A stretch of 10,089 nt of DNA from a virus. Its lineage: Duplodnaviria; Heunggongvirae; Uroviricota; Caudoviricetes. The notes under the pieces are model-generated. The model saw only the letters and a list, made by a program, of their open reading frames with translations, was not told where the DNA came from and did no database searches. This document shows, in pieces, positions 1,056 through 1,706 of this stretch. How positions within the stretch are numbered: position 1 is the stretch's first letter; every line of letters starts with the position of its first letter. Made by a program: the position numbers and the translations under genes. Location: IMG/VR virus record IMGVR_UViG_2675903357_000009; one strand, written 5' to 3'.

Positions 1056-1075
1056 TCCCGCTAACTGATACCCGG

Positions 1076-1162
1076 CTAACAGTCTGGCGTTTTCTTTTTC
1101 AGCAACGGGAAAGCAACAACCACCACACCCGCCACCAGCACACCGTCAGCCAGCACTGACAT
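1076..1162 (-). CDS. Candidate small hydrophobic peptide (28 aa, MSVLADGVLVAGVVVVAFPLLKKKTPDC); possible GTG start at 1207
   Basis: Short ORF with one transmembrane-like stretch and a lysine-rich C-terminus. Weak Shine-Dalgarno. Seen only by manual translation. Confidence 0.2.
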   Translation of the reverse strand: MSVLADGVLVAGVVVVAFPLLKKKTPDC

Positions 1163-1242
1163 TATCCGGCTGCTGCAATGCCATTCACAAAAACAGTAAG
1201 CAATCACTTTTTACCGTAACAGGTGATAATCCAGATATGTAT

Positions 1243-1569
1243 CTACCCCAGATGAGTAATCCGAAGTTCATCCATACCACAGGTCCTGGCTATTCTGTTG
1301 TACTCCTGAACAAGAGCAAATAATTCTGAATTAGCAACCATGAACTCATCGCAAACCCTCTGTATAGCATCACTATTCAGAATAATAACGTCTCTTCCCG
1401 AAAGACGATCAGGAGTACAGAACAAAACTGTCAAACGGCTGAAGGCCTTTGCTCGTGCTGCATTGACTATATCAATACGCTGCCTAAGGATGAAACACCC
1501 CGACGCCTCATCAATATTCACTCTACCCACACCATATGAATGATAAATATTTAATGCTGAAAAAACCAT
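1243..1569 (-). CDS. Hypothetical protein (108 aa from the ATG at 1569; the ORF track extends it to a TTG at 1596)
   Basis: Longest ORF in the copy-1-specific segment 1056-1706, co-oriented with the late genes. No clear Shine-Dalgarno and no recognisable family. Confidence 0.3.
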   Translation of the reverse strand: MVFSALNIYHSYGVGRVNIDEASGCFILRQRIDIVNAARAKAFSRLTVLFCTPDRLSGRDVIILNSDAIQRVCDEFMVANSELFALVQEYNRIARTCGMDELRITHLG

Positions 1570-1706
1570 TAGACCGTATAACAAACACTCAATCAATACT
1601 TAACAGAACTTTTATTTTTGACAAACATAAAATATTTTCAACAATATCCTGAGCCAGGTATATTTCAGTATAAGGCTCTGCCGGAAGGAATCTGGAAGAA
1701 TGAATA

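Follow-up and report, generated by a model that had tools for sequence, protein, structure and literature searches.

The stretch between the antiterminator gene Q and the lysis genes of lambdoid phages is a cargo slot, the site that stx occupies in Stx phages. Cargo carried in this manner is captured by the moron concept, which is said to go back to work by Juhala et al. and by Hendrix et al., both in 2000. Here we consider IMG/VR virus record IMGVR_UViG_2675903357_000009 (the window: the whole stretch of DNA that was analysed, 10,089 nt), in which the late region of an E. coli/Shigella lambdoid prophage, encoded on the minus strand, has undergone rearrangement, and within it a segment of lower G+C between the tRNA gene argO and a small RNA (sRNA) gene. 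Our preferred reading, to which we assign a probability of roughly three in four, is that this segment is the filled state of the cargo slot, or moron slot, of lambdoid prophages in Enterobacterales, running from the Q/tRNA cluster to the lysis genes; that a second, tandem copy of the region displays the empty state; and that the cargo comprises one intact gene, here termed orf92, and the wreckage of two others, tciA and tciB.

For each part of this cargo a described counterpart exists. The relatives of orf92 are hypothetical phage proteins of the families phrog_2873 and phrog_4827 (WP_001017777.1; DKZ96_22740; A0A136WL65), with which it agrees in length, start and synteny. As for tciA and tciB, JLK-2012 carries a set of tRNAs followed by tciA (a TerB-domain gene, 143 residues) that overlaps tciB (54 residues; DUF3927), and in P1 (L028 19349-21009) tciA-tciB-tciC lies inside a tRNA cluster, between tRNA-Asn/tRNA-Thr and tRNA-Ile2. 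The P1 arrangement means that the link between a TerB/DUF3927 cassette and phage tRNAs recurs in an unrelated phage type. The literature that we found on TciA/TciB, DUF3927 and STnc100 is confined to homology-based naming and sRNA surveys; it includes no functional test of the Tci proteins and nothing on orf92.

The window holds two partial tandem copies of the late region (copy 1, ~821-2520; copy 2, ~3831-6440), each with the minus-strand order Q antiterminator, terminator-like hairpin, tRNAs and 'R element'. The features on which the argument turns, all on the minus strand, are as follows, with the basis of each in brackets; abbreviations are ORF for open reading frame and dN/dS for the ratio of nonsynonymous to synonymous substitution rates, and clades 2 and 3 are further groups of E. 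coli copies, that of the window being clade 1.

1051-1706 (-): copy-1-specific segment, read as the cargo slot of the late region in its filled state (repeat families, direct reading, G+C)
1243-1521 (-): orf92, an intact 92-codon gene with a GTG start, MNIDEASG...ITHLG (phrog_2873, dN/dS, homologue starts)
1217-1235 (-): scar of tciA, the TerB-domain gene, last 19 nt only (blastn, alignment A6)
1076-1207 (-): 43-codon ORF with a fortuitous GTG start, most likely a remnant of tciB, DUF3927 (Pfam, phrog_1470, alignments A3 and A6)
1522-1596 (-): probable 5' leader of orf92, with in-frame TTG 1596 and ATG 1569 (dN/dS, indel, fold)
1597-1706 (-): spacer specific to this lineage, separating argO from the orf92 module (homology to clade 2 begins at ~1598, to clade 3 at ~1557)
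1707-1783 (-): tRNA-Arg (anticodon UCU), which is argO, the upstream boundary of the slot (ARAGORN; Rfam tRNA, 68 bits)
821-1010 (-): STnc100 sRNA gene, which is the 'R element', the downstream boundary of the slot (Rfam RF02076)
4057-4082 (-): the slot of copy 2, read as empty, with hairpin GGCTCGCTTTTGCGGGCC then T8 directly after argO (read from the sequence)
2003-2022 (-): hairpin resembling a terminator, located after the truncated Q gene and before the tRNAs; possibly the tR' of the late operon, which would be read through under Q (terminator scan; Q annotated in strain 64)

The contrast between the tandem copies defines the segment. Two repeat families (846-1064 versus 3856-4074, 94%; 1694-1814 versus 4084-4204, 91%) are spaced such that copy 1 has ~630-640 extra bases where copy 2 has ~9, and on direct reading of both copies true homology stops at ~1050/4060 and restarts at ~1690/4084. 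The initial annotation, made from the letters alone, had placed about 650 bp of additional lower-GC sequence here in copy 1; repeat families and base composition agree, giving ~640 bp (~1051-1693) with a G+C of 0.37-0.46 against ~0.48-0.55 in the flanks. It had also seen that argO of copy 2 runs directly into a terminator, which the hairpin and T8 at 4057-4082(-) bear out. Since no direct repeats or terminal inverted repeats were found flanking the segment, a discrete mobile insertion was rejected, and the segment is instead a mosaic module. It is widely distributed: of 5426 complete E. coli genomes, 1183 carry 80% or more of 1000-1760, in most cases at identities of at least 99%, and the segment also occurs in phage mEp460_ev081. 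The whole window has no full copy in the complete-genome E. coli set, the best match covering 85% at 95% identity. Neither copy 2 nor the Stx phages have the segment; the latter share only the tRNA at this site, a pattern consistent with exchangeable cargo. In sequence, the hairpin after argO of copy 2 is similar to the clade-3 E. coli terminator downstream of orf92 (AGCTCGCTACTGCGAGCT with T7; L023 4303-4320); what is read here as an empty slot may thus have arisen by deletion from a filled one.

What fills the slot is, above all, orf92. The longest ORF of the segment, 1243-1596(-), has 117 codons from TTG 1596 or 108 from ATG 1569, and an antisense ORF of 67 codons lies at 1340-1543(+). Both had been listed correctly and in the right frame; a GTG start at 1521 and the 43-codon DUF3927 ORF had been missed, and the conclusion drawn, that the segment had no confident gene content and that the 108/117-codon ORF was weak, does not hold. 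The 117-codon ORF matches phrog_2873 with an E value of 3.8e-70, its residues 10-117 covering the whole of profile positions 1-108, and the 92-residue core alone matches at 5.6e-58; phrog_4827 is a weaker match. The ORF thus aligns in frame to an intact gene elsewhere, though its frame had not been mis-called. In a family alignment of 21 members (A5), phrog_2873 is matched by every sequence and phrog_4827 by 20 of the 21. We see no structural difference between orf92 and the phrog_2873 family, of which the window gene is an ordinary member. Searches of Pfam, NCBIfam and PADLOC, with the single sequence and with all 21 family members, returned no match.

A search of 5.8 billion proteins turned up the other two E. 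coli clades, which are 57-63% identical, and a profile search extended the family to relatives of 91-110 residues in Citrobacter, Salmonella, Morganella, Serratia and Xenorhabdus, some 40 clusters in all, every one within that length range. The sequences of A5 are ~91-99 residues long, share a start column and conserve R23, P37, N64 and Y74-N75. Substitutions between the lineages carry the signature of a protein under constraint: dN/dS is 0.26 between the window and clade 2 (dS ~1.1, Fisher p 6e-7), 0.22 between the window and clade 3 (dS ~1.1, Fisher p 9e-8) and 0.32 between clades 2 and 3, with Fisher p values for the E. coli comparisons from ~1e-7 to 4e-5; across clades and genera it spans 0.15-0.42. 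When the same alignment is read in the two shifted frames, the proportions of synonymous and nonsynonymous differences are about equal, as in neutral sequence. Among eight lineages compared, the sense frame alone is open in all, and the antisense 67-codon ORF is not open in the other clades. Judged by these comparisons, orf92 is an intact coding sequence on which purifying selection has acted, both among E. coli clades and among genera. The suggestion of a novel small-protein locus was accordingly right as to a conserved small gene and wrong as to novelty, given phrog_2873, the GenBank hypothetical protein and a 92-residue RefSeq relative.

Within clade 1 the gene is nearly invariant. The exact protein sequence of the orf92 region is found on at least 1000 contigs, and the exact 108-residue translation stands in GenBank under the name of Shigella sonnei as a hypothetical protein. 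A tblastn search of 50,697 phage records found mEp460_ev081 only; a scan of genome contigs found E. coli only, and a scan of viral contigs with P0028 gave no match. Two candidate relatives were rejected, TciA since it gives no BLASTP alignment with orf92 and P1 TciC since it has only 35 residues and is unrelated. K-12, for its part, shares only iraM with the window, and its small-protein data (ymgK, ymgL) therefore do not apply to orf92.

The position of orf92 is kept along with its sequence. In the window, in strain 64 and in relatives, it lies between Q/tRNAs and the lysis cassette in the orientation of the late operon. E. coli clade 3 (L023, L029) has the order methylase-(AraC)-orf92-TerB-DUF3927-holin-holin-endolysin, with RefSeq annotation for all four, and Citrobacter (L014) has orf92-TerB-DUF3927-holin; the order common to the two is Q-(methylase/AraC)-(tRNAs)-orf92-TerB-DUF3927-holin. 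Morganella and Serratia show Q-(methylase)-tRNAs-orf92-holin/lysozyme, and Salmonella shows Q-tRNAs-orf92-antirepressor-like gene-holin. In E. coli clade 2 (L010-L012, L004), orf92 is downstream of a gene for a prophage AraC-like (HTH_18) regulator; many isolates of this clade have an insertion of an insertion sequence (IS) of the IS3 family just upstream of orf92, creating a chimeric 119-residue ORF (P0017), and a 45-codon ORF downstream of orf92 has no DUF3927 match. Exceptions to the synteny are a plasmid-like context next to tRNA-Thr and a Mu-like tail cluster in Xenorhabdus. The former, on E. coli plasmid-like contigs (L016-L018, 4001-4276), is a lone member of 91 residues, 34% identical, which sits ~580 bp downstream of tRNA-Thr and is flanked by a PapB/usher fimbrial operon on one side and a Rep3 replication gene on the other; the orf92 family is therefore not confined to prophage late regions.

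Set against the moron model, the segment is likewise extra relative to its sister copy, lower in G+C, and placed within the late operon in the operon's orientation, and relatives of orf92 show the moron layout in being bracketed by terminators. An intrinsic terminator follows orf92 by 15-70 nt in Morganella, Serratia and E. coli clade 3 (L019, L021, L023), and Morganella and Serratia have another before it. The window differs from a typical moron in that no convincing promoter of its own was found and the downstream terminator is missing: a terminator scan found none after orf92 or tciB, promoter-like sites number 4 where shuffled sequence would give 2.2, not clearly an excess, and no conserved promoter was seen in orf92 relatives. 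Given the terminator directly after orf92 in L019, L021 and L023, that element would have been lost from the window along with tciA.

The remains of tciA and tciB occupy the downstream part of the segment. Window positions 1076-1235 are homologous to the end of tciA plus tciB of JLK-2012, in the same position after the tRNAs and with the same downstream flank, which is 93% identical to window 865-1175 (311 nt). Relative to JLK-2012 and P1, the window has tciA deleted and tciB truncated, and it alone has orf92 ahead of the cassette. The tciA scar begins 7 nt past the orf92 stop; blastn aligns window 1235-1208 with JLK-2012 3256-3229, and the GTGA in which the tciA stop and tciB start overlap is mutated to GTTA at 1217-1220. 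No ORF in the segment matches TerB (PF05099). The orf92 and tciB homology blocks are 100 nt apart in the window versus 701 nt in L023, with ~585-600 bp missing relative to intact cassettes, including the terminator after orf92. Damage to tciB is concentrated in its 5' third, where alignment with JLK-2012, E. coli clade 3 and Citrobacter reveals deletions of 11, 4 and 5 nt, the stretch between the last two being out of frame. The phrog_1470 'TciB-like' profile is matched by residues 12-40 only, on profile positions 23-51. As a description of tciA, with its 19-nt scar, and of the 5'-degraded tciB, the term decayed cargo offered in the initial annotation is apt; it does not fit orf92, which is intact.

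The predicted product of orf92 is small, without a membrane segment, and has an isoelectric point of ~5.7. AlphaFold2 models it as two long antiparallel helices joined by a loop with a conserved P-D motif, with a mean confidence score (pLDDT, predicted local distance difference test) of 84 from 7 sequences and 88 from 21. A profile search of the PDB gave GapR/UPF0335 as its best match, at a non-significant E value of 0.06. The model recalls the helix/beta-hairpin/helix of beta-type prefoldin and other antiparallel coiled-coil hairpins, a likeness of shape only, at 4% identity, and hundreds of unrelated and designed hairpins score as well as the prefoldin-type match. From this model, the product would be a soluble helical hairpin that acts by binding a protein rather than by catalysis. 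One possible role, which we put forward tentatively, is that of a small adaptor or inhibitor that works independently of TciA and TciB, an independence suggested by the persistence of orf92 without either of them here and in Morganella and Serratia.

Several of these elements admit other readings. Following most gene callers and GenBank, the true product would be a longer protein of 108 or 117 residues initiated at ATG 1569 or TTG 1596: the ORF is open from 1596, the clade-2 forms P0014 and P0015 keep a similar in-frame extension, the phrog_2873 profile has 108 positions, and GenBank entries are 108 residues long. However, the extension is nearly neutral (dN/dS 0.80, versus 0.26 in the core), a 1-nt indel throws it out of frame in most clade-2 copies, including the commonest form (P0016, 49 members), neither clade 3 nor any other genus has an equivalent of it, and there is no Shine-Dalgarno sequence at either upstream start. 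All relatives begin at the column of GTG 1521—with ATG there in Citrobacter, Morganella and Serratia—and RefSeq WP_001017777.1 (92 residues, 63% identical) uses the same GTG. In clade 3 an AGGAG stands just 5' of the GTG, at the position matching that of the Shine-Dalgarno-like GGTGTGGGTAGA (1522-1533) before GTG 1521 in the window. The start column of the relatives and the neutral, frame-shifted leader therefore define the gene as 1243-1521(-), 92 codons, with 1522-1596 a leader that is probably not translated; the longer product we consider quite unlikely. A parallel question concerns the 43-codon ORF, which could be a functional single-pass membrane peptide, a shortened TciB. It scores 95.6 bits against PF13064 (cut-off 25), PGAP annotates it as WP_000562553.1, it is intact on ~1000 contigs in several 43-residue variants, and its C-terminal 30 residues, from SSRIMSV on, are identical to JLK-2012 TciB, taking in the second helix and the KKK anchor. 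What it has lost speaks against function: the start codon, the coupling to tciA (the tciB start overlaps the upstream tciA stop in the intact pairs of L003, L014, L023, L029 and P1), the partner gene itself, and one of two membrane helices. Residues 2-11 (IAYCFCEWHC), mostly derived from the frame-shifted stretch between two indels, displace the original N-terminus, and the product falls short of the 50-54 residues and two hydrophobic helices of full-length TciB, as found in JLK-2012, E. coli, Citrobacter and P1, only the second helix being left. Within the identical core only one nucleotide differs, a synonymous change, which leaves no signal of selection to read. On this comparison the ORF is most likely a non-functional remnant, and we doubt that it encodes a working TciB.

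The whole segment, orf92 included, might alternatively be dead cargo hitch-hiking in a defective prophage, its ORF still open owing to recent spread, and here the points that weigh against our preferred reading come together. Clade-1 copies are at least 99% identical, in 1118 records, so orf92 could be intact because a defective prophage spread recently and not because selection continues to act on it. Copy 1 sits in a degraded prophage full of IS elements, with Q truncated by an IS and the lysis genes absent from the window, and the adjoining tciA and tciB are visibly decayed. The Shine-Dalgarno sequence before GTG 1521 is weak (GGTG/GGGT), and the only promoter-like site, a weak sigma-70-like TTGAAA-16-AAAAAT at 1641-1614 in the spacer that scores 9/12, sits in non-conserved sequence. 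PGAP/RefSeq leaves orf92 unannotated in the best 25 clade-1 genomes and all 15 clade-2 genomes among those listed. What we call a deletion at tciA is indistinguishable from a joint of illegitimate recombination, and fold searches with the orf92 model return generic coiled-coil hairpins only (Foldseek E > 0.1), which makes the idea of a protein-binding role a weak one. Hitch-hiking is a possible explanation for the near-identical clade-1 copies; it leaves unexplained the strong constraint between clades and genera described above and the retention of length and start across seven genera. Moreover, within the same stretch tciB has acquired three indels and a lost start, four lesions, and orf92 none. 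We therefore hold dead cargo, as an account of the whole segment, to be unlikely. Less probable by far is a noncoding RNA locus with incidental ORFs, whether an sRNA, a cis-regulatory leader or a spacer processed out of the tRNA transcript, an option that had also been raised at the outset. With a tRNA cluster on one side and STnc100 on the other, and prophage sRNAs abundant in the region, the location of the segment would suit such a locus, and a 151-nt stretch within orf92 folds above shuffles (z -2.99) and contains nested inverted repeats, an outer perfect pair of 11 nt (1299-1309/1409-1419) and an inner pair (1320-1331/1375-1386). Rfam, though, has no match within 1056-1706, or within 1040-1720, even under lax filters, apart from one chance match (E 1.3, 14 bits); the fold of the leader is unremarkable against shuffles (z -0.49); and substitutions follow codon constraint. 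Clades 2 and 3 do not retain the internal stem, its covariation is negligible, and an RNA structure inside orf92 was rejected on that ground.

The preferred reading, a filled cargo slot with one surviving gene, suggests a history and a mode of expression. The ancestral slot would have contained three minus-strand genes, orf92 (phrog_2873), tciA (TerB) and tciB (DUF3927, two membrane helices). A deletion of ~590 bp would have taken out the terminator of orf92 together with almost the whole of tciA, after which tciB would have lost its start codon and first helix. During lytic growth, Q-modified polymerase would be expected to travel from PR' through the 2003-2022 hairpin, the tRNAs and orf92, and onward; orf92 may also be transcribed from its weak promoter-like site, and its translation would begin at GTG 1521.

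The surroundings of the slot are those of a much-rearranged prophage. IS3-family pieces lie at 1-72, 2520-3652 and 10018-10089, the last of them inverted, and the window accordingly starts and ends with identical 72-nt IS ends in opposite orientation. The Q gene of copy 1 (2062-2520, -) is interrupted at 2520 by an element of the IS3 family whose own left end is missing. This arrangement suggests that IS elements brought about a duplication or rearrangement of the late region. The tRNAs of copy 2 are three in number, CAU (tRNA-Ile in the strain 64 annotation), Arg-UCG and Arg-UCU, and ARAGORN places its tRNA-Arg(UCU) at 4097-4173(-). When 1784-1883(-) of copy 1 is set beside 4187-4263(-) of copy 2, the middle tRNA of copy 1 escapes both ARAGORN and Rfam because the sequence there has diverged. 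The second copy of STnc100 lies at 3831-4020(-), the two scoring 132 and 124 bits against RF02076 (gathering score 47); a terminator for the first was found by terminator scan at 830-851, and a weak third match at 3604-3792, at 21.8 bits, is under threshold. In pathogenic E. coli, STnc100 is known as an expressed prophage sRNA that is present in multiple copies (PMC5331693; bioRxiv 10.64898/2026.05.13.724894). Between STnc100 and the IS end, on the strand opposite to the late genes, a 111-codon ORF at 460-795(+) encodes a homologue of the anti-adaptor IraM; the identical locus of strain 64 is named IraM by PGAP, and nucleotide identity to K-12 iraM is 70%. Farther along, at 8853-9178(-), is a hok/sok-type toxin-antisense locus, where Rfam sok matches 9003-9178 with 112 bits and a hok/mok-like ORF of 70 codons occupies 8853-9065.

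Taken as a whole, the segment is a cargo slot of a kind ordinary in prophages; it does contain a gene, and it is neither an RNA locus nor new. All of its parts come from catalogued families (phrog_2873, DUF3927/TciB, STnc100 and phage tRNAs), and the exact proteins are already hypothetical entries of GenBank/UniRef. Our understanding of such systems is unchanged by this result. The tandem copies, in showing the empty and filled states of the slot that carries stx elsewhere, are a useful illustration of a principle that is well known. Two points concern annotation. The RefSeq 'DUF3927 family protein' at this site is most likely a truncated remnant, an example of a strong domain match that does not amount to an intact gene. 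Conversely, RefSeq/PGAP annotates the clade-3 homologue of orf92 (WP_001017777.1; L029, strain MFDS1022581) and omits the clade-1 gene, including that of strain 64 (L001), and the clade-2 gene in every genome listed; orf92, passed over by the RefSeq pipeline in about one-fifth of complete E. coli genomes, merits annotation and perhaps a Pfam entry. A bolder proposal, which we think improbable, is that the orf92 family represents an unrecognised accessory function of enterobacterial lambdoid prophages, bracketed by terminators beside the tRNA cluster, whose hairpin binds a host or phage protein. Such a function would, for instance, tune lysis or late expression, mediate phage exclusion, or counter host defences that target tRNAs. 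Were this so, it would be a function that RefSeq omits from more than 1000 complete E. coli and Shigella genomes.

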